From the NCBI GenBank assembly GCA_963809895.1, contig CAWELD010000003.1:2272001-2336000 (forward strand): a stretch of 64,000 nt of DNA. Direction: 5' to 3'. Below the pieces are notes generated by a model. That model ran no database searches, was not told where the DNA came from, and worked only from the letters and a program-made list of their open reading frames with translations. Positions 23,781 to 34,747 of this stretch are shown in pieces. How positions within the stretch are numbered: position 1 is the stretch's first letter; every line of letters begins with the position of its first letter. The DNA is from an uncultured Gemmatimonadales bacterium. Lineage in GTDB: Bacteria > Gemmatimonadota > Gemmatimonadetes > Longimicrobiales > Gaopeijiaceae. The position numbers were made by a program, and so were the translations under genes.

Positions 23781-24203
23781 TCAGGCCCCTTCCTGCATGG
23801 AGGGCGCCCGGTGGGCGGGTACCGTCACCGGGCGTTCGCTGTACTGCGCCCACTGCATGGGCGTCTCCCAGACGCGGGTGTACAGGAGACCGTCGGCCAA
23901 CGTCGGGGGCAGGCGCTTCTTGAGCTCGTCGAAGAACCAGCGAGCCTGGTTTTCGGCGCTGGTCTCCACGGACTCGAACGCCGGAAGATCGTTCAGGTTG
24001 TAGTGGTCCAGCTCTTCGGCCAGCGCCCTGAGCTCCCGCTTCAGGTCCACGAAGTCGTAGGCGATGCCGGACTCGTCCAGCTCCTCGGCCTGGAGCGCCG
24101 CCTCCACCACGTAGCGGTGACCGTGCAGACGCTCGCACTTGCCCTTGTAGTGGCGCAGGAAGTGGGCGGCGTCGTAGTGGGCCTGAACACTGACGGTGTA
24201 CAT
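23781..24203 (-). CDS. queD: 6-carboxytetrahydropterin synthase (COG0720, PTPS-I/III motif)
   Basis: YDAAHFL, CERLHGH, LDHYNLN, SAEN and VWET motifs. Confidence 0.85.
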   Translation of the reverse strand: MYTVSVQAHYDAAHFLRHYKGKCERLHGHRYVVEAALQAEELDESGIAYDFVDLKRELRALAEELDHYNLNDLPAFESVETSAENQARWFFDELKKRLPPTLADGLLYTRVWETPMQWAQYSERPVTVPAHRAPSMQEGA

Positions 24204-24209
24204 GAAGGA

Positions 24210-24941
24210 CTACCCTCGCTCGATCTGCAGAAGGGGGATGCGCACGTGGAGGGGGCGCGTGAGCACGAACTCGACGGCGTCGGCCACGTCGTCGGGCCGG
24301 AGCATGGCGTCACGGTCCGGAAGGCCCGGGACCCGCGCGGCATCCACGGCGTCCCACAGCGGCGTGTCGGTGGCGGCGGGCTCGATGAGCGTCGCACCGA
24401 CGCCGGTTCCGCGAAGCTCCTCCACCAGGACCTCGTGGAGGCCGCGGAGCCCGAACTTGGAGGCGGCATAGGCGGCATTGCCGGGCAGGGCGCGCCGGCC
24501 CGCCACCGACCCCAGATTCACGATCCGCCCACGGTTCCGTTCCAGGAGGGCCGGCAGCAGCGTCCGCACGACCAGGAAGCTCCCTCTGAGGTTCACGGCG
24601 ATCTGGCGATCGAAGTCGGCCACCGAGGTCTCGGCGAAGGGAGCCAGGGAGAAGGCGCCCGCGGCGTTGACGATCGCGTCGGGCGGACCACCGAGCTGCT
24701 CCTGCAGGCCCTCCACGGCCGCCCACACCTCGGCGTCGTCGGTGAGGTCCGCGGGCCATGGCGCACCCCCCGAGCTCGTGGCGAGGTCCTCGACCGGGGC
24801 CGGGTCGCGGCACAGCACGTGAACGCGCGCCCCACCCTCGGCCAACCGACGGACCACCGCTTCGCCGATCCCCCGGCTCCCGCCGGTGACCAGCACCGTC
24901 CCGCCGCTCAGCTCCACCGGCTGCTTCTCCGGTCCGCGCAC
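24210..24941 (-). CDS. SDR family oxidoreductase within the pterin cluster
   Basis: TGGSRGIG, VNAAG and YAASK motifs. Confidence 0.88.
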   Translation of the reverse strand: MRGPEKQPVELSGGTVLVTGGSRGIGEAVVRRLAEGGARVHVLCRDPAPVEDLATSSGGAPWPADLTDDAEVWAAVEGLQEQLGGPPDAIVNAAGAFSLAPFAETSVADFDRQIAVNLRGSFLVVRTLLPALLERNRGRIVNLGSVAGRRALPGNAAYAASKFGLRGLHEVLVEELRGTGVGATLIEPAATDTPLWDAVDAARVPGLPDRDAMLRPDDVADAVEFVLTRPLHVRIPLLQIERG

Positions 24942-24948
24942 GCGTGTC

Positions 24949-25587
24949 TCACGACAGGGGGTGATGCGTGGCCATGGAGAGCCGCAGGAACTCGTCCCGG
25001 GTCCGGGGATCCTCGAGGAAGGCGCCCCGCATGGCCGACGTGATGGTCTTGGAGTTCTGCTTCTGCACGCCTCGCATCATCATGCACAGATGGTAGGCCT
25101 CCACCACCACGCCCACCCCCTGCGGCTGGATGATGTCCCACAGGGCCTGGGCGATCTGCTCGGTGAGACGCTCCTGGACCTGGAAGCGGCGGCTGAACAC
25201 CTCCACCAGCCGGGCGGTCTTCGAGAGCCCCATGATCTGGCCGTCGGGGATGTAGGCGACGTGCACCTTGCCGAAGAAGGGCAGCAGATGGTGCTCGCAC
25301 AGCGAGTACATCTCGATGTCCTTCACGAGCACCATGTTGTGGTGATGCTCTTCGAAGAGCGCATCGCCGATGACCCTCTCCGGCGACGACTCGTAGCCGT
25401 GCGTGAGAAAGCGCATGGCCTTCTCCACGCGCTCCGGAGTCTTGACCATCCCCTCGCGCTCCGGATCGTCACCCAGACGGCGGATCATCTCGGCCACGAG
25501 GTCGGTGAAGGCCACGCCGGAGAGGTCCGGGCGGGTCGAGCCGGCACCGTGGGCCGTCGTTCCTTTGTTCGTCGTCGTTTCGGGCAC
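24949..25587 (-). CDS. folE: GTP cyclohydrolase I
   Basis: SLCEHHLLPF, GLSK, QVQERLT and HLCMMMRGV; GTG start after GAGGAG. Confidence 0.95.
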   Translation of the reverse strand: MPETTTNKGTTAHGAGSTRPDLSGVAFTDLVAEMIRRLGDDPEREGMVKTPERVEKAMRFLTHGYESSPERVIGDALFEEHHHNMVLVKDIEMYSLCEHHLLPFFGKVHVAYIPDGQIMGLSKTARLVEVFSRRFQVQERLTEQIAQALWDIIQPQGVGVVVEAYHLCMMMRGVQKQNSKTITSAMRGAFLEDPRTRDEFLRLSMATHHPLS

Positions 25588-25613
25588 CTCTATCTCCTCT
25601 ACCGACGGGGAGC

Positions 25614-26030
25614 TCACTCCCCGGAGTATTCCACGTAGTTGCGGGGCGTCTCCCACAGCAGCAAGCGCTCCAGGGCGACCCCGTCCGGCATGCGATCCAC
25701 CAGGCGCTCCCACACGGCCACGACCAGGTTCTCGGTGGTGGGAATACGGCCTCCCATCCAGGGCACCTCGAGGTTGAGGTTGCGGTGGTCCACGTCGTCC
25801 ACCACCTGCTCCTGGACGAGCTCCTTGAGCGCCTTCAGGTCCAGCACGTATCCGGTCTCGTCGTCCACGTCGCCGGACACCGTGACGTCGAGCTCGTAGT
25901 TGTGGCCGTGCCAGTTGGGGTTGGAGCAGGCACCGAAGACGTCGGCGTTGCGCTCGTCGGACCAGTCGGGACGAAAGAGGCGGTGTGCCGCGCTGAAATG
26001 GACTCGGCGGGTGACCCTGACTCGGGGCAT
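25614..26030 (-). CDS. 6-pyruvoyl-tetrahydropterin synthase (COG0720, PTPS-II motif)
   Basis: FSAAHRL, CSNPNWHGHNY (CX5HGH), DHRNLN, TTEN and WETPRN. Confidence 0.88.
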   Translation of the reverse strand: MPRVRVTRRVHFSAAHRLFRPDWSDERNADVFGACSNPNWHGHNYELDVTVSGDVDDETGYVLDLKALKELVQEQVVDDVDHRNLNLEVPWMGGRIPTTENLVVAVWERLVDRMPDGVALERLLLWETPRNYVEYSGE

Positions 26031-26206
26031 GCTGCTCCACTCCTGGAAGGCCGTAGCGGACGCGCCGGACGGCGAGAAGATACCCCGCCCCCGACCGGCT
26101 GCATGCTTACCCACCCTGCTGCAAATCGGTCCCGCCCGAAGCGGAGGAGCCGGCGCCCCCACGGGGACGCCGGCTCCGGACCGCGCACGGTGGTGACGAC
26201 GGCGCC

Positions 26207-29200
26207 TCAGGACACCAGCCGCACCCGGATCTTGGACTCGTCGACGATGATGCGCGGACCGTCGGGGCCGAGCCTTTCGTTGAGCTGACGAATGGTGGTG
26301 TTCCACACCTGCCAGACGGCATCGATGGCCTCCTGGGCTTCGGTGTGGACCTCCCGCAGCCGCAGCATCTGCGGGTCGGTGGGCGGCGCCTCCACCCCCG
26401 AGATGGAGCGCGTCAGCGAGCGAACCTCCTCGCGCACCCGGGGACGTTGCCGGTACCCCATGTTGGGCGGGGGCCTGCGCAGCAGCGAATCGGTCACCTG
26501 CGCCATTTCGGCCCGGGCCCGCGCCACGTCGTCGCGTAGATCCGCGGCGCCCGGCAGCGCCCCGGGCTCGTCGCGGAGCGTCTCGTCGAGGGCGTCGAGC
26601 TGCTGGAGCACGCTCTCGGCCACGCCGACGGCGCCGTCCACCTGTCCCGCGAGCTCGCCCAGCGACGTCACCGCCTCGAACTGCGCGCGGTAGTCCGCGG
26701 CGGTCATCTCCACCCTGGGATCCCCGCGCACCTCCACCGACCGGGACTTCTCCCAGCCCGGCCCCACCAGCGCCACCGTGTACGTGCCCGGAACCGCCGT
26801 GGGTCCACCGCCCCCGAAGAACCCACCGCCGCCGCCCTGTCCGCCGGCCGGATCGTCGTAGCGCAGGTCCCAGGTGACCCGGTTGAGCCCCACCCTGGGC
26901 TCGCGCACCGGGAGCGTACGAACGGTGTCACCGGCCCCGTCGCGGACTTCGACCCGCAGCCCGCCGTCGGGGACCGACGCCAGGTAGAAGTTCACCATGG
27001 CGCCGTAGTCCGGGTTCGGCGCCGCGTACGCGCGCTGGCCCTGGTTGGCGTCGGTTCCGGCCATCTCCCACCGGGTCGCCCGCCGGACCGGAAAGAGATA
27101 GGGAGCCTCGTCCAGCGCACGGGGCAGATCCTGCAGCACCCTGGCGTCGTCCAGGACGTACGCGCCCCGGCCGTGGGTGCCCAGCACCAGATCGTCGTAG
27201 TCCGGCTGCATCTGGATGTCGCGCACCGAGACCGGAGGCAGATCGGCGCCTCGCAGGTCGTGCCAGCTCGAACCCCGGTCGAAGGAGACCTGGAGCCCCC
27301 TCTCCATTCCCACGTAGAGGATGTCCGGGTCGGTGAGGTCCTCGCGGATCACCTTCACGTAGTCGTCCTGGGGCAATCCCTCCGCCAGGCTCCGCCAGGT
27401 CGCGCCGTAGTCGTCGGTGACGAAGGCGCTGGGCGCGAAGTCGTCCATCTGGTGATTGTCGACGGCGATGTAGGCCCGCCCACCCTCGAAATTCGACGCG
27501 TCCACCTTGGCGATCCACGCTTCATCGCGCAGGCCGGCGCGCTTCAGGTTGTCGGTGACGTCGGTCCAGCTCTCGCCGCCGTCGCGGGTCACGTGCACCA
27601 GCCCGTCGTCGCTTCCCGTCCAGATGACGCCGGCCTCCACCGGCGACTCCTCGATGGTCAGGATGGTGGTGTGGAACTCGGCCGCCGTGTTGTCGAGATA
27701 GATCTCCCCGCCGGAATCCAGCTGCTTCTCCGGGTCGTCGGTGGTGAGGTCCGGGCTGATCACGTCCCAGGACTGGCCGAAGTCGGTGCTCCGGAAGACC
27801 ACGTTGCCGCCGAAGTACACGGTGGCGGGATCGTGGGGCGAGATGTGGATGGGCGCGTTCCAGTTGAAGCGGTACTCGTGGTTCACCATGGCGTCTCCCG
27901 CCGACCCCACGATCTTCGGGTACGGATGGATGCGCCGCGCGGCTCCGGTGCGGGTGTCCACCAGGGCGATGTTGCCGCCCTGGGAGTTGGTGTAGACCAG
28001 CCACGGCATGCCGGGCACCGACTGGCTGTAGAAGCCGTCGCCGCCGGAAAGGTTGAACCAATCGTCCTTCAGGATCCCTTCGCTGTGCAGCGAGTTGGAG
28101 GGACCGCACCAGTTGCCGTTGTCCTGCAGCCCGCCGCACACCCAGTACGGATCCCGGTCGTCGACGTCGATCTGGTAGAACTGGGACAGCGTCACGGTGT
28201 TCAGGATGTCGAAGGTCTCCCCTCCGTCCAGCGACACCTGGAATCCCCCGTCACTCCCCGAGAGGTAGCGCTGTGAATCCTGGGGATCGATCCAGAACGA
28301 CTGATGATCGCCGTGCACGTCGCGGGCGATGCGCTGAAAGGTGCGTCCGCCGTCCGTGGACTTCGACAAGCCCCCGGACAGGGTGATCAGCACCTCGGGG
28401 TTGGTGGGGTCCACCCTCAGATCCGAATAGTAGAACGGGCGGAAGTTGATGTCCCTGGAGTCGTTCACCGTGCGCCAACTCTGACCCCGGTCGTCGGAGC
28501 GCCACAGCTGACCCTGGGTGCGCGTCTCGGAGATGAGGTAGACCGTTTCCGGCGCACTCTGGGCCACCGCCACGCCGATGCGGGCCATGGGCTCGGTGGG
28601 CATCCCCGGCCGATGGGCCAGCGACTGCCAGGTCTCCCCCCCGTCGCTGCTACGCCACAGGGCGGTCTCGCCGCCACCGTCGTCGAAGCGCCAGGGCCGG
28701 CGCCGGAAGGTCCACATGCCCGCGTACAGGACGCGCGGGTTGGAGGCTTCGAGGTCCAGGTCGCTGCAGCCGGTGTCCTCGTCCACGTACAGGACCTTGT
28801 CCCAGGTCGCCCCGGCGTCGGTCGTGCGGAAGACCCCGCGTTCCGGGTTGGGTCCCCAGGCGCGGCCCAGGGCGCACACCCACGCGACATCCGGATCGTC
28901 CGGATGCACGCGGATACGCTTGATGCGCTCGGTCCCGTCCAGGCCGAGATAGCTCCAGGTGTCCCCACCGTCGGTGGATCGGTACACCCCGTTGCCGTAG
29001 GAGGAGGAGTTGCGGGGATCCCCCTCGCCGCTCCCGAGCCAGATCACGTTGGGATCGGAGGGTGCCACGGCCAGCGCCCCCACGGAGTAGACCGGCTGGT
29101 CCGTGAAGAGGGCCTCGAAGGTCGTGCCCCCGTTGCGGGTCCGGAACACGCCGCCGTCGGCACCTCCCACGTAGAAGGTGCGCGGGTCGCCCGCCACCCC

Positions 29201-29371: not shown

Positions 29372-29484
29372 GACTCGGCTCCGTGCGGGGATTCGCCAGC
29401 GCGCCGTCCCGGGAGGGCGGCGCCGGAACGGAAGCAACGTGCGCCTCTCGAGCCCCGCGGGCAAATCCCGTCCTCACCAGCACG

Positions 29485-29526
29485 AGAAACGGGGCCGGCG
29501 CTCCCTGACGGGTGGCGCCGGCCCCG
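29485..29526 (-). terminator. Intrinsic terminator of the putative 6S RNA
   Basis: 12-bp stem 29490-29501/29515-29526 followed by TTTCT on the minus strand. Confidence 0.7.
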
Positions 29527-29528
29527 AA

Positions 29529-29679
29529 ACGCACCGGAGGGGTTTTATTGAAGCCCGGGCAGTATTGATGGTGACCTCCCCGCAACTTCCGTCTTCCTTC
29601 ATCGAGGCGTGACGTCCATCTCGGGAGTCAGTCCCGGCTTCTCTTGTGTTGGCTCAATAATGATGGCCCTCCGGTACGC
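29529..29679 (-). ncRNA. ssrS: Probable 6S RNA
   Basis: Rod-like self-complementarity (GCGUACCGGAGGG/CCCUCCGGUGCGU; UUAUUGAGCC/GGCUUCAAUAA; UGACUCCCG/CGGGGAGGUCA) around an A-rich bubble, with its own promoter and terminator. Ends approximate. Confidence 0.7.
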
Positions 29680-29684
29680 ACTCC

Positions 29685-29714
29685 AATATACCGGGGGGCA
29701 GGGGGGCGGGTAAA
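29685..29714 (-). promoter_or_regulatory. Sigma70-type promoter of the putative 6S RNA
   Basis: TTTACC-18 bp-TATATT on the minus strand. Confidence 0.6.
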
Positions 29715-29767
29715 GCGATCCCCCACGGATTTCAGGGGTAGCCAGGACGTCGTGTCCGCTCCCGGCG

Positions 29768-29797
29768 TTGACATTTCGCCCGGCGCGCCCCTAGCCT
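29768..29797 (+). promoter_or_regulatory. Sigma70-type promoter of the leader ORF/metal uptake operon
   Basis: TTGACA (29768-29773), 18 bp, TAGCCT (29792-29797); ATG follows 8 nt later. Confidence 0.65.
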
Positions 29798-29805
29798 GGT
29801 CGTTC

Positions 29806-30141
29806 ATGGACCACATGCGCTACAACCTGGCCCGCTGGTTGGGGATTCCCCTGACGGCGGTCCTTCTGGCCCTCACCGTGGCCCTGCCCCTCATGGAGAG
29901 CAGGGATTGGCGTGGTGGGCCCGTGCTGGAGGCCAAGCACGACCCGGCGCACTGCATCCAGGGCCACGACCACCGCCTGTGCATCCTGGGCGGGGTCCTG
30001 CGCACGCTCCTCCCGGCGAGCCGTCCAAGGCCGCTTCCCGAGACCCAGGTGGAAGGCCTGCGCGAGGCGCGCTGGGCCGAGATTCCCGGCCGCATCCTCC
30101 ACCCGCTCACCCGCTCCCGGGCCCCTCCCTTCTCGCTCTGA
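29806..30141 (+). CDS. Putative metal-sensing ribosome-arrest leader peptide (TM + His/Cys cluster + RAPP; CruR/DUF2946-like architecture)
   Basis: 111 aa: hydrophobic LARWLGIPLTAVLLALTVALPL, HDPAHCIQGHDHRLC, C-terminal RSRAPPFSL. Lies upstream of metal uptake genes. Alternative start at 29815. Confidence 0.7.
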   Translation: MDHMRYNLARWLGIPLTAVLLALTVALPLMESRDWRGGPVLEAKHDPAHCIQGHDHRLCILGGVLRTLLPASRPRPLPETQVEGLREARWAEIPGRILHPLTRSRAPPFSL

Positions 30142-30252
30142 ACCCAGCTCCATGCGCCGCCGTCTCGCCGATCCGCGGACGGGCGGTCGCCGTGCAGGCC
30201 CATGGGGGCCCTGCACGCGCTGAACCCAGAACCGAGATGTGGAGGTCTACGC

Positions 30253-31578
30253 ATGCGCGTTCCCCAGAGATGGCTCGCGGGCACCGTGGTGGTGCTCGCC
30301 GTCATCACGACGTTCCCCACCCCCGGGGCAGCCCAACAGCAGGCTGCCGATTCGGTGGCCGCCCGCCTGGCCCGCCTCCAGGCCCGGGTCGACAGCCTCG
30401 AGGCCCTCGTCCGCCGGCTCCAGGCCACCGGTCAGGAGGAGGCGGCCCAGAGCGCCGCCGAGCAACTCCGCGCCGCGGCCCGTGCCGCGGCCGCCGCGGG
30501 CGCCGCCCCCGACACCACCACCAGCGCCCAGGGAGGCCAGACCTTCGTCGGGCGCCAGCGCTCGCTTCAGGCGCTGAATCCCGAGATCAGCGCCACCGGT
30601 GATTTTCTCGTCCAGGCCGACAAGGACGACACCAACGCCGACAACTTCATCGCGCGGGAGTTCGAGTTTTCCTTCCAGGCCTCGCTGGACCCCTACTCCC
30701 GGGCCAAGATCTTCGTGAGCAACCACCGCCCAGGCGGTGAGCTGGTCCCCTTCGCCACCGATGACGGAGGCGAGGAGGAGGGCGGCACCGCCGTGGAGGA
30801 GGGCTACGTGCAGTGGGTGAACCTGCCCGGCGGAACCAGCCTCACCCTGGGACGCTTCTTCCAGCGCTTCGGCACCCTCAACCGCTGGCACGGCCACGCG
30901 CTGCCCTTCCAGACCCGCTCGCTCCCCCATCTGGCCTTCCTCGGTGAGGAGTCTCTCACCCAGACGGGAGCGTCGCTTTACTGGCTGGTCCCGGTGCACG
31001 GGGGCGGGACGTACGAGACCTGGCTCGAGGTGACCCGGTCCGAGAACGCGGCCCTCTTCGGGGACAACCACGGGCTGTCGGTCCTGGGACACGTCAACGG
31101 CTTCTGGCAGCTCACCGACGCCACCGATCTGGATGTGGGCCTCTCCTGGATCAACGGCACCCGGGAGTCCGGCGACGCCCTCATGGACCAGAATCTCTAC
31201 GGGGCGGAGATGGCCTTCACCTGGAGGCCTCCGAACCGCAGCCGCTACCGCGACTTCACCTTCCGCGGTGGCGTCATGGTCAAGGATCCGTCGTCGGCGA
31301 CCGTGAACGCGCGCAGCGCCAAGGGCGTCTGGAGCATGGCCGAGATGCGCCTGTCGCCGAGCTGGCTGGTGGGCGGACGCTACGACTGGGTCGAGAATCC
31401 GGACGACCCGGACCAGACCGCATCGCTGGTCTCGCCCACGCTCACCTGGTGGCAGAGCGAGTTCGTCCGCGTGCGCGCCGAATACGACTTCCTGCGCCGC
31501 TCCTTCGGCGAAGACACCGGCAAGCTCGTCATGCAGGTGACCTTCGCCATGGGCCCCCACAAGCACGAGAACTACTGA
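30253..31578 (+). CDS. Outer-membrane beta-barrel protein of the metal (Zn-type) uptake operon
   Basis: GGAGGT RBS, signal peptide, coiled coil, LNPEISATGDF, LNRWHGH, WWQSEFVRVRAEY and His-containing C-terminus MGPHKHENY. Confidence 0.8.
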   Translation: MRVPQRWLAGTVVVLAVITTFPTPGAAQQQAADSVAARLARLQARVDSLEALVRRLQATGQEEAAQSAAEQLRAAARAAAAAGAAPDTTTSAQGGQTFVGRQRSLQALNPEISATGDFLVQADKDDTNADNFIAREFEFSFQASLDPYSRAKIFVSNHRPGGELVPFATDDGGEEEGGTAVEEGYVQWVNLPGGTSLTLGRFFQRFGTLNRWHGHALPFQTRSLPHLAFLGEESLTQTGASLYWLVPVHGGGTYETWLEVTRSENAALFGDNHGLSVLGHVNGFWQLTDATDLDVGLSWINGTRESGDALMDQNLYGAEMAFTWRPPNRSRYRDFTFRGGVMVKDPSSATVNARSAKGVWSMAEMRLSPSWLVGGRYDWVENPDDPDQTASLVSPTLTWWQSEFVRVRAEYDFLRRSFGEDTGKLVMQVTFAMGPHKHENY

Positions 31579-31627
31579 CCCCCTGGAGGGCCCCACGGCG
31601 GGCCGTCCCAGTCACGGAGACGACATC

Positions 31628-32704
31628 ATGAAAACGCATCTCGTCACAGGTCTGGCCTTGATGATCGGCGCGCTGAGCGCTGGTCCGGCCCGGGCCGACA
31701 CGCACCCCGACGGCGACGGGCCCGCGCGCTTCGCGCCGGTGCGGGTGGTGGCCACCCTTCCGGTCTACGGAAGCATCGTCAAGGAGATCGGCGGCAACGA
31801 GGTGGAGGTGACCTCCATCGCCGACCCCGACGAGGATCCCCATTTCGTGCGGCCGAAGCCCAGCTTCGCGCTGGAGCTGCGCAGGGCCGACATGTTCATC
31901 ACCACCGGACTGGACCTGGAGCTGTGGGCTCCTTCGCTCCTGGACAAGGCGGGCAACAGCAAGGTCATCGAAGGCGGCCCGGGCTACGTCACCGCGTACA
32001 CGGGAATCAAGTTGCTGGACGTGCCCTCGGCGGTGGACCGCAGCCAGGGAGACGTGCACATCTACGGCAATCCCCACGTCCACACCGACCCGCTGCGCGC
32101 CCTCCAGGTGGCGCGCAACATCACCACCGGCCTCAACCGGGTGGCCCCCGATCGCTCCCAGACCTGGAACGACGGCCTGGCGCGTTTCCAGGATCGGATC
32201 TACCGGGCCACCTTCGGCGACCGTCTCGTGGAGCTCATCGGCGGCGAGACGCTGGAGCAGCTGGCGCTGGCGGGCAACCTGCACAGCTTCCTCGACGGCC
32301 AACAGTACGAAGGCCATCCGCTGTCGCAGGAGCTGGGTGGCTGGCTCGGCAAGATGGCGCCCTATCGGGGCCGTCACATGATCTGCTACCACAAGAACTG
32401 GGCCTACCTGCAGGAGCGCTTCGACCTCACCTGCACCGAGTACGTGGAGGCCAAGCCGGGCATCCCCCCGACACCACGCCACGTGGCGCGACTCATCGAG
32501 CTGATGCAGGCGCAGAACATCAAGGTCATCCTGGCCGCGTCGTACTTCAGCCGGAACAAGGTGGAAACCGTGGCGGACCGCGGCGGCGCGACGGCGGTCA
32601 TCGTGCCCATGGAGCCCGGCGGCAGCGTGAACACCCCCGACTACTTCTCGTTGGTGGACCACTGGGTCGATGGCCTGACCACGGCGTTCGCCGGCACCTC
32701 CTGA
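31628..32704 (+). CDS. znuA: Metal ABC transporter substrate-binding protein (ZnuA/TroA family)
   Basis: VVATLP, DPHFV, GNPHVHTDP, YHKNWAYL and EAKPGIPPTPRH. Confidence 0.88.
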   Translation: MKTHLVTGLALMIGALSAGPARADTHPDGDGPARFAPVRVVATLPVYGSIVKEIGGNEVEVTSIADPDEDPHFVRPKPSFALELRRADMFITTGLDLELWAPSLLDKAGNSKVIEGGPGYVTAYTGIKLLDVPSAVDRSQGDVHIYGNPHVHTDPLRALQVARNITTGLNRVAPDRSQTWNDGLARFQDRIYRATFGDRLVELIGGETLEQLALAGNLHSFLDGQQYEGHPLSQELGGWLGKMAPYRGRHMICYHKNWAYLQERFDLTCTEYVEAKPGIPPTPRHVARLIELMQAQNIKVILAASYFSRNKVETVADRGGATAVIVPMEPGGSVNTPDYFSLVDHWVDGLTTAFAGTS

Positions 32705-32725
32705 CCCGCTGACACGGACCGTCCC

Positions 32726-33574
32726 ATGCTCCAGCTCATGATCACCCCGTTGTGCGCGTCCATGGTCATCCTGTTGATCCACGCGTACTTCGGGCTCCAC
32801 GTCATCCAGCGGGAAGTGATCTTCGTGGACCTCGCCCTGGCCCAGATCGCGGCGCTGGGCGGCACGGTGGCCTTTCTCCTGGGATCTCAGCCGGGCTCGG
32901 CCTCGGCCTACGTCTGGAGCTTCGGCTTCACCCTTCTGGGCGCGCTCATCTTCTCGTGGACGCGCCTCGAGGACTCCCCCGTTCCCCAGGAGGCCCTCAT
33001 CGGCATCACCTACGTGGTGGCGTCGGCCGCGGTGATCCTGGTGTCGAGCTTCACCGCCGAGGGCGCCGAGCACCTGCAGGAGACGCTCACGGGATCGCTC
33101 ATCTGGGTGACCTGGCCCACGGTGTTCAAGATCGCCGCGCTCTACGCAGCCGTGGGACTGTTCCACTTCTTCCTCAGGCGGAAGTTCCTGGCCATCTCCT
33201 TCCACCCGGAGCAGGAGCGCCACATCCACCTGTGGGATTTCATCTTCTACGCCACCTTCGGGATCGTGATCACGGCGGCCGTGCAGATCGCCGGCGTGCT
33301 CATGGTGTTCAGCTCGCTGGTCATCCCGGCGGTGGTGGCCTTCTTCTACGTGCGCACCTTCCGGGCGGCCATCCTCATGGCCTTCGCCACCGGCACGGTG
33401 GCGGTCTTCCTGGGACTGGCGGTGTCGTTCAGCATGGACCTGACCACCGGACCGGTCATCGTGTGCGCCTTCGGATTCGTGCTCCTGGTGGCGCTCCTCT
33501 TCCGCAAGCGCTTCGGCGTGGTGCTCAAGGAAGGCGACCGCCGGGGCCTGACGGTGCGGGGCTTCGAGATCTGA
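32726..33574 (+). CDS. znuB: Metal ABC transporter permease (ZnuB/ABC-3 family)
   Basis: GLHVIQREVIFVDLALAQIAALG, AGVLMVFSSLVIPA and DLTTGPVIV. Confidence 0.88.
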   Translation: MLQLMITPLCASMVILLIHAYFGLHVIQREVIFVDLALAQIAALGGTVAFLLGSQPGSASAYVWSFGFTLLGALIFSWTRLEDSPVPQEALIGITYVVASAAVILVSSFTAEGAEHLQETLTGSLIWVTWPTVFKIAALYAAVGLFHFFLRRKFLAISFHPEQERHIHLWDFIFYATFGIVITAAVQIAGVLMVFSSLVIPAVVAFFYVRTFRAAILMAFATGTVAVFLGLAVSFSMDLTTGPVIVCAFGFVLLVALLFRKRFGVVLKEGDRRGLTVRGFEI

Positions 33575-33637: not shown

Positions 33638-34537
33638 TCACCCGGTCCGGAAGCTCCGCAACAGCCTCAGGTTCCCCAGATCCGCGGCCACCGGGTCGTC
33701 GCCCTTGGGCGTTTCCAGGACCTTGGGGACGGTGGCGAAACGCGGGTCCGTCATCAGACGCCTGAAGGGAGCCTCACCCAGCGTTCCCTGTCCGATGCCG
33801 GCGTGGCGGTCCCTGCGCGACCCCAGCGGATGCACCGAGTCGTTGAGGTGGAAGAGCCCCACGCTCTCCAGCGGCAGGTGGTCCTGGAAGGCCATCCACA
33901 CGCCCTCCCAGTCGTCCACGAGGTCGTAGCCGGCGGCGTAGGCGTGACAGGTGTCGACGCACACGCCCACGCGAGCACGCAGGGGCTCGCGCACGCCCGC
34001 GAGGATGGTCGCCAGATCCTGGAAGCGTCCGCCCACGCTGGTCCCCGAGCCGGCCGTGAGCTCCAGCAGCACCCGGGCGGCGCCGGGAACCGCCTCCAGC
34101 GCCCGTTCCACGCCCTCCGCATTGCGCGCGAGACCCGATGCGTGGTCACCGTCGGTGGCGTTGCCCGGATGGGTGACCAGGAAATCGAGCTCCAGCCTGG
34201 CGCATCGATGGAGCTCGGCCTGGAAGCTGGCCAGCGACCGGCGCCACAGGACGGGGTCGGGGCTCGCCAGGTTGATCAGGTAGGAGTCGTGGCTGCCGCA
34301 CACCACCATGCGCTGGCGTGCACGCTCGGCCGCAAAACGCTCCACCATGTCGTCGCCGAGCCGTGGCTCGGCCCAGCGGTTGGGCTGCTTGGTGAAGAGC
34401 TGGAGCACGACCGCGTCGATGTCCCGCGCCCGGCCCGGAGCGCGGTCCACACCCCCGGCGGCAGACACGTGGGCACCGAGCTCGTCTGCCGGAGCAGAAG
34501 GGATCGCGGCGTCCGGTGGAGAATTCGTCACTGGCAT
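33638..34537 (-). CDS. nfo: Endonuclease IV
   Basis: LGAHVS, HDSYLINL, HPG, LLELTAG, CVDTCH, FHLNDS, DRHAGIG and VLETPK. Start approximate. Confidence 0.92.
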   Translation of the reverse strand: MPVTNSPPDAAIPSAPADELGAHVSAAGGVDRAPGRARDIDAVVLQLFTKQPNRWAEPRLGDDMVERFAAERARQRMVVCGSHDSYLINLASPDPVLWRRSLASFQAELHRCARLELDFLVTHPGNATDGDHASGLARNAEGVERALEAVPGAARVLLELTAGSGTSVGGRFQDLATILAGVREPLRARVGVCVDTCHAYAAGYDLVDDWEGVWMAFQDHLPLESVGLFHLNDSVHPLGSRRDRHAGIGQGTLGEAPFRRLMTDPRFATVPKVLETPKGDDPVAADLGNLRLLRSFRTG

Positions 34538-34747
34538 CCTGCCCGAAAGGAGGTCATTCGAGTCGGCAAATATTGCCGGCCGTGGTACGAGATTGCCGGC
34601 CGCGGCCCGGAAAGCCCCCGGGAATGCGGCCAAACCCGGGGGCGGTCAGCCGGCACGCGTCTTGAGGGGTGAGCAGGTCCCGATCCGAAAAGCGGATCAC
34701 AGAGCAGCCCCAACCCCCAGGCCACACGAACGCCGGAGGACCCCCCG

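Follow-up and report, generated by a model that had tools for sequence, protein, structure and literature searches.

The DNA analysed here, a stretch of 64,000 nt from an uncultured Gemmatimonadales bacterium (the window), carries a short open reading frame (ORF) just upstream of genes for a porin-like outer-membrane barrel, a metal-binding protein and a permease (Table 1). The ORF encodes a leader peptide composed of a hydrophobic N-terminal segment, putatively for export, an HxHxxC motif, a low-confidence linker and a C-terminal RAPP-FSL-stop. The RNA that encodes RAPP and the stop codon is predicted to pair with the ribosome-binding site (RBS) of the porin gene and to mask its Shine–Dalgarno (SD) sequence, and it is this pairing, followed across homologous loci, that forms the core of the present analysis.

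Table 1 Features of the leader and the genes behind it (positions of the window)
Feature	Position	Strand	Description
Probable sigma-70 promoter of the leader	29768..29797	+	TTGACA, 18 nt spacer, TAGCCT; 8 nt before ATG
Leader ORF, CruR/CutF-like	29806..30141	+	111 aa, MDHMRY...TRSRAPPFSL-stop
Putative metal site H54-D-H56-x-x-C59	29965..29982	+	Conservation in leader alignment
RAPP codons CGG GCC CCT CCC	30118..30129	+	Would serve as arrest site and anti-SD
5' strand of the RBS-masking helix	30124..30148	+	Pro-Pro codons through stop codon plus a few bases
Inner hairpin 1 of the intergenic spacer	30154..30190	+	Minimum free energy fold; absent from the earlier note
Inner hairpin 2 of the spacer	30191..30217	+	Minimum free energy fold
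3' strand of the helix	30219..30245	+	Ends in Shine–Dalgarno GGAGG (30241–30245)
Outer-membrane porin-like beta-barrel, first regulated gene	30253..31578	+	AlphaFold predicted local distance difference test (pLDDT) 87; Foldseek
ZnuA/AztC-type metal-binding protein	31628..32704	+	Pfam ZnuA, E 2e-45
ABC-3 (ZnuB-type) permease	32726..33574	+	Sole ABC-3 gene found in the genome

M1, H54, H56, C59, R105, P107 and P108 are invariant in all 49 aligned leaders, the invariance of RAPP (residues 105–108 of 111) being partly built in by selection of the leaders via the pattern R[AGS]PP. The distance from C59 to R105 is 46 (45 residues between) in 48 of 52 loci and 45 or 47 in the remainder, RAPP is followed by two codons and a stop in 47/52, and the leader length is near-fixed at 109–111 aa in most close loci. 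Many leaders contain a second cysteine; a single one is invariant, alongside the two histidines. An AlphaFold model of the leader shows helices at 3–36 and 56–68. The N-terminus is basic and followed by a hydrophobic helix, a candidate export signal. The leader is present as a single copy in its own genome, in which a scan for further hydrophobic RAPP-stop leaders returned this locus and one doubtful ORF only. A homologue search with the single sequence recovered only itself; relatives emerged by profile search, with 479 at E ≤ 0.001 and matches in 34 of 201 Gemmatimonadota genomes.

As both the Pfam cutoff and the CXXC motif failed, the leader was not filed as DUF2946 (PF11162, cutoff 23.7 bits): it has no match to this family, and H56-x-x-C59 occupies the register of the CXXC found in DUF2946 and CruR. 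The cutoff is passed by two of 73 homologous leaders (L061, 24.2 bits; L088, 28.9 bits), five others match below it, CxxC is found in distant homologues, and the ESM Atlas cluster nearest to the leader is automatically named putative DUF2946 (score 0.97). The family is best regarded as a divergent clade of the CruR/CutF-like type, in which HxxC replaces CxxC. Judged by a rule-based description of CutF-like leaders (PMC9973294), the peptide is short (111 aa, limit 150), carries PP at 107–108, within its last 15 residues, and precedes a same-strand porin gene by 111 nt (limit 1000); the remaining feature, concealment of the next gene's SD in a stem that would open under a stalled ribosome, is present by prediction and covariation only. 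Rfam covariance models gave no match over 29400–30500 at E ≤ 1.

An earlier note on this DNA, made from the letters alone, had proposed that the RAPP codons double as an anti-SD for the downstream gene, and all strings quoted in it were found in place. In the minimum free energy (MFE) fold of 30100–30270, CCTCC (30124–30128) pairs with GGAGG as proposed, and C30129 pairs with G30239. The continuation of the helix through 30131–30135 with 30233–30237 and 30137–30140 with 30227–30230 was likewise recovered, although two small loops each displace its register by one base, so that it is not kept throughout. The fold has a z-score of −2.76, with equally good folds in 0/200 shuffles, and the SD pair probabilities are 0.95–1.0 in all five fold windows of 151–621 nt. 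The hairpin described as enclosed by the helix (inner hairpin 2) is accompanied by inner hairpin 1, so that the helix closes a three-way junction. The CTGAACCCAG repeat is real, yet a by-product: each copy reads CTG-AACC-CAG, and the copies pair mutually around a 4 × 4 loop. As a separate element it was rejected, a repeat flanking the stop codon being found in 1/52 loci (this locus alone). An intrinsic terminator in the spacer was also rejected, with none at this locus and a T-run in 8/52 homologues. The spacer sequence is not conserved among homologues, and its length varies from 51 to 141 nt.

The pairing at a single locus may reflect no more than base composition, since in a GC-rich genome any GGAGG offers a partner to CCN-CCN codons. 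Proline codons have been noted to resemble anti-SD sequences (PMC12697547, in the passage cited), and among 1183 strong-SD RBS regions of this genome, 345 match or exceed the cognate one as pairing partners of the arrest strand. Taken alone, this locus places the pairing only modestly beyond chance, which is weak evidence.

Because any SD can pair with CCN-CCN, a cross test was chosen in which each arrest strand, taken as 33 nt starting from the Arg codon, was paired with each RBS (−35 to +3), all RBSs carrying an SD. The 94 loci at the start were reduced to 83 by removal of ten duplicates or non-homologous loci and one without a porin match. An R[AGS]PP-stop leader is present in 76 of these 83 porin loci; among the seven leader-less ones, three have <530 nt of upstream DNA and four have no leader by profile search. 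Exclusion of two further duplicates and of one locus lacking a start gave 59 close and 14 distant loci, and with seven near-identical close loci removed the final set numbered 52. The mean duplex energy was −26.3 kcal/mol for cognate pairs versus −21.5 kcal/mol for non-cognate pairs. After double-centring, the cognate mean was −4.73 with a permutation standard deviation of 0.52, and 0/100,000 permutations were as good, while four control pairings were null (z −0.02, 0.90, −0.83 and 0.55). The signal persisted when the RAPP-proximal 15 nt were paired with the SD alone (z −5.7) and when one locus per genus was used (35 groups, mean z −7.0). In 33/52 loci the cognate RBS outpairs that of the nearest relative. 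In sliding windows the signal was strongest over the stretch between Pro-Pro and stop (z −9.3) and, on the RBS side, over −35 to 0 of the start codon (z about −7), the profile being flat elsewhere.

The result was replicated with leaders from previously unused genomes, drawn by the leader profile (30 fetched, two without a downstream ORF dropped). These 28 leaders head TolC-like (6), TonB-type (10) and Pfam-less (12) genes, and gave z −4.85 with controls at −0.39, −0.83 and 0.39. As every RBS in the cross test carries an SD and the cognate pairs nevertheless come out ahead, the controls being null and the replicate independent, chance pairing is largely refuted and hardly credible as an explanation. 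The comparison of sequences indicates that pairing between arrest strand and RBS is under selection in the relatives, the evidence being weak from one locus and strong from the comparison.

Selection of this kind is also visible in the codons. In 41/52 loci, pairing is better with the native codons than with synonymous recodings. The first Pro codon is CCT in 23/52, versus 15% for the first codon of PP pairs genome-wide and 7/56 for other PP pairs of the leaders, and its wobble U pairs with A in 22 of the 23 CCT loci. An excess of CCA at the same position (15/52) was dropped from consideration, since other leader PP pairs use CCA in 11/56. A C precedes the TGA stop in 47/49, whatever the amino acid, versus 49% in the genome, and TCAG stands before the SD in 19/52 loci versus 0–3 in control windows. 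The Pro-Pro-to-stop strand pairs with −35 to +3 in 29/52 loci, versus 1/52 for a control strand.

The predicted footprint of a stalled ribosome, from 30124 to about 30141, spans the whole 5' strand of the helix. At this locus, the cost of opening the RBS falls from 20.2 to 15.0 kcal/mol when the footprint is masked, and to 12.0 kcal/mol when the upstream RNA is covered too. Over the 52 loci the mean relief is 2.85 kcal/mol, rising to 4.03 once upstream RNA is covered, whereas a footprint placed 31 nt upstream yields 0.22; relief of at least 2 kcal/mol is obtained in 30/52 loci versus 8/52 for the control footprint. The proposal that a stalled ribosome exposes the RBS as in secM-secA is supported in so far as masking cuts the opening cost; CutF and CruR are closer models than secM-secA.

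As the pairing is kept across relatives, a translation switch operated by ribosome stalling is probable. The computed peptide anatomy, cognate pairing and footprint overlap make a metal-sensing arrest-peptide switch the favoured and rather likely assignment, while arrest, export, metal binding, the identity of the metal and the polarity are inferred. The promoter directly before the leader, a conserved motif, would yield a single transcript spanning the leader and the genes for porin, binding protein and permease. With no ribosome at the end of the leader, the codons from Pro-Pro through stop would pair with the porin SD and about 20 nt before it, keeping porin translation off, a step based on predicted pairing with support from covariation. 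The nascent leader would enter Sec via its hydrophobic N-terminus and the ribosome would stall on RAP/P, as suggested by ApdA and ApdP, cover about 30110 to 30141, and so open the RBS. At arrest the HxHxxC site would lie 48–53 residues from the P site, roughly the distance at which an exported chain emerges from the translocon. Binding of a metal, most likely zinc, could then fold helix 56–68, pull on the chain and end the stall; termination would follow two to three codons later and the helix would re-form. By analogy with CruR, uptake would be on in metal shortage and off in plenty, and the untranslated downstream RNA may additionally be shortened by Rho.

The same helix could operate with no ligand at all. 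As the stop codon lies within it, each terminating ribosome would open the helix, and a finishing ribosome that briefly unwinds it could set a fixed, low porin level, RAPP merely slowing elongation; transient opening by a non-arresting ribosome has been proposed for uDF_RQH (PMC10987492, in the passage cited). Such unregulated coupling is quite unlikely, as an invariant HxHxxC at a fixed distance from RAPP, along with a nearly constant leader length, would be difficult to account for if no sensing geometry were involved. Still less likely is a secM-like monitor of export or envelope redox state, in which pulling by Sec or a disulfide would set the stall and tune the synthesis of outer-membrane proteins. 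The leader does combine an export segment with RAPP as in ApdA/ApdP, many leaders carry a second cysteine, and most first genes behind the replication-set leaders encode outer-membrane proteins. The targets, however, are metal uptake or efflux genes rather than sec or yidC (here a porin, a ZnuA-type protein and an ABC-3 permease, and not secA, secDF or yidC, the kind of target expected of monitors such as SecM, MifM and VemP), and only one cysteine is invariant, together with two histidines.

Several observations weigh against the metal-sensing switch, or against the strength of its support. With 30110–30145 forced open, the fold check suggested in the earlier note, the RBS was loosened rather than demonstrably free, as the SD still takes weaker partners in ViennaRNA, at 30096–30102 (including a leader CCTCC at 30096–30100), at 30148–30153 or downstream. 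The stalled footprint gives no relief in 15/52 loci. Start codons were picked automatically by SD score, and the homologues are kin, so that p-values are overstated, though the controls share this kinship. Covariation was found in the form of cognate-specific pairing far beyond chance, but RNAalifold, run on 30 of the 52 loci after alignment with MAFFT, returned no consensus pair. Varying spacer lengths and shifting registers probably defeat the alignment of the spacers, and the alignment-free cross-pairing was used because of this outcome. Pro codons serving as anti-SD represent the commonest register and no general rule: pairing of the first five Pro-Pro bases with the SD window exceeds P 0.5 in no more than 20/52 loci (CCT 13/23, CCA 2/15); in shorter folds these bases mask it in 32/59. 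In the conserved unit, the strand from RAPP through stop pairs with the −35 to 0 region, but the Pro codons do not in every case face the SD. In 10 distant loci, where the porin gene is mostly SD-less, the cognate signal is not significant (z −1.6), and the leader can therefore work without the helix. The binding protein resembles Mn/Fe binders as well. Finally, CruR, the closest peptide match, works through Rho in the published account (PMC9426467).

In a Rho-centred alternative, a stalled ribosome primarily hides a C-rich rut site at the 3' end of the leader, release leads to Rho termination in the spacer, and SD pairing is secondary. CruR shares the Cys-to-RAPP spacing of the window leader, the distant SD-poor loci retain the leader without significant cognate pairing, and the C/G ratio is 1.98 between −30 and +21 around RAPP, or 2.31 at wobble positions. 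Two matches to the Rho RNA-binding domain were found in the genome, at about 48421 in the window (C3:2320421) and at C3:850478. A rut site, however, requires composition and not complementarity to the gene's own RBS, which leaves the cognate-specific signal unexplained, and the C excess is limited to the anti-SD region (C/G 1.05 in the spacer). Primary control through Rho is accordingly considered unlikely, if less so than the other alternatives.

The metal-sensing switch would work like CutF and SecM/uDF_RQH with the peptide geometry of CruR, a principle already published for SecM and CutF; the comparisons below reflect the cited passages of each source. CruR (Bp2923, a DUF2946 protein) controls bfrG in Bordetella pertussis and spans C93 to R139, i.e. 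the same Cys-to-Arg distance of 46 ahead of a C-terminal RAPP (PMC9426467). It differs in carrying CxxC where the window leader, with no Pfam DUF2946 match, has HxHxxC, in preceding a copper TonB receptor instead of a ZnuA/ZnuB-type operon with a plugless porin, and in using frequent codons for RAPP, whereas here the rare CCT, which pairs with the SD, is favoured. CutF-cutO of Rhodobacter capsulatus likewise relies on an exported metal-binding leader whose stall unfolds an SD-hiding structure (PMC9973294; bioRxiv 10.1101/2025.02.05.636593). In contrast, its stem-loop is described as intergenic, with a stall on PPP and copper-induced detoxification as output (PMC9973294); here the arrest codons are the anti-SD and the target is uptake, so that the polarity should be opposite.

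In SecM-secA, MifM-yidC2 and uDF_RQH-secDF2, arrest close to the 3' terminus of the leader opens an SD-masking stem, the RGPP arrest of uDF_RQH opening that of secDF2 (PMC10987492). These leaders monitor Sec or YidC and regulate secretion genes, unlike the present one. The arrest chemistry is that of ApdA/ApdP and uDF_RQH (RAPP/RGPP; PMC10987492, PMC7897499, PMC10951233), and for ApcA, ApdA and ApdP the cited passages report no predicted SD-masking hairpin (PMC7897499). In many phyla, small secreted proteins carrying RAPP at the C-terminus have been described upstream of metal genes, TonB among them (PMC12992588). The main text of that report does not contain the terms 'Shine', 'stem-loop', 'zinc', 'ABC transporter' or 'Gemmatimonad', and leaves open whether and how RAPP arrest regulates downstream genes. 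Our literature search, with subscription journals mostly outside it, found no passage naming RAPP codons as an anti-SD or a zinc arrest leader, and figures or supplements could already show either.

The ligand was approached through the downstream operon. The top Foldseek matches of the barrel are the porins VhChiP (E 4e-12), OmpT and OmpM1; the protein has no Pfam family over cutoff, and the porin profile found no PDB sequence match. For the binding protein, the best NCBIfam model is AztC, followed by MntC, both below cutoff, and the best PDB matches are zinc-uptake proteins. Across 18 genomes, for which 60 of 215 ORFs were scanned, the genes around the operon differ, with folE, queD, endonuclease IV and one ZIP transporter gene recurring. 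We take the products of the first three to be zinc enzymes, and these neighbours support zinc weakly. In the window, two queD-like genes, folE and an endonuclease IV-type gene flank the operon on the minus strand (23781–26306 and 33638–34633); the queD and folE calls were read from ORF translations, and homologues in relatives match PTPS and GTP cyclohydrolase I. Together with these neighbours, the ZnuA/AztC matches make zinc the best guess for the ligand, with Mn, Ni and Co possible. His-only CutF-like leaders have been linked to Ni/Co genes (PMC9973294, in the passage cited). The characterized metal-sensing arrest leaders among the literature compared, CruR and CutF, both answer to copper.

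A more specific version, which we regard as possible though falling somewhat short of an even chance, is a zinc-sensing leader in which zinc would fold the HxHxxC site where the chain leaves the translocon and so end a RAPP stall encoded by anti-SD codons. It would place the only ZnuAB-type uptake system found in the genome under translational control by periplasmic zinc, instead of or on top of a Fur-family repressor, with the same arrest/anti-SD cassette reused across Gemmatimonadota before uptake and efflux genes. If the ligand is zinc, nascent-peptide sensing would extend to a second metal, and offer a route to reading periplasmic zinc. The co-evolution of arrest-site codons with the cognate RBS provides a comparative argument that the switch is translational, and in a construct of about 480 bp synonymous changes would allow the roles of peptide and RNA to be separated.

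Upstream of the leader, TTGAC is found at −44 to −28 of the ATG in 38/52 homologues and TAnnnT at −16 to −5 in 35/52, the latter count being biased upward by the choice of leader starts partly by a −10-like score. The site scored below the threshold of the promoter scanner. As the promoter is close to the ATG and an SD precedes the latter in only 5/52 homologues, the mRNA is probably leaderless, starting near 29804–29806. The genome holds two Fur-family genes, and the promoter spacers appear unconserved, as judged without a formal search for Zur/Fur operators. Contigs of metatranscriptome run X1 cover parts of the leader and 30131–30318 at a depth of about 6 and cannot show strand, level or a single transcript; runs X2 and X3 contribute nothing.

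A porin match is present in 76 of 301 genomes of the order (a tally that includes the unpublished and otherwise unused G166). The named relatives belong to Gemmatimonadota, one among them to Longimicrobiales. The cassette at 30253–33574 contains no ABC ATPase gene, and none lies directly behind the permease in most of 18 wider loci; L112 has one ATPase ORF 700 nt behind it. The ATPase is encoded elsewhere or unneeded. Two leader-less porin loci look decayed, L111 (G285) lacking binding protein and permease behind the porin and L109 (G251) having a permease of 205 aa. In a distant clade (L083–L094), leaders with HDExxCxxC and RAPP-VS[IL]x-stop precede a mostly SD-less porin gene, and a conserved GAGAC some 20 nt ahead of the start offers a pairing partner for the GTCTC behind RAPP; the switch in these loci may be a different one. 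Related HxH/HxxC RAPP leaders across Gemmatimonadota (L142–L171; three in G047) head TolC-like efflux genes and TonB-type receptors, two types of target that would need opposite metal polarity from one cassette.

On the minus strand next to the leader, a structured RNA of about 150 nt extends over about 29680–29485, with its own sigma-70-like promoter at 29714–29685. From about 29680 the predicted fold is a rod interrupted by a central bubble, behind which a hairpin resembling a terminator follows (z −4.67). A contig of run X1 over 29560–29669 reaches a depth of 653 versus about 6 over the leader, in contigs that show neither strand nor true level. Rfam gave no match for this RNA, nor any 6S match in the genome, and the signal recognition particle RNA candidate of the genome sits elsewhere. 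A literature search pairing 6S RNA with Gemmatimonad found nothing. The architecture is presumably that of 6S RNA, and the element is probably the unannotated 6S RNA of the family. It is treated as a neighbour and not as part of the switch, being back to back with the leader in 14/52 loci. Of 121 family genomes, 113 have a match, in nearly all cases just one, and compensatory changes occur at 14 of 40 consensus pairs among 22 sequences.

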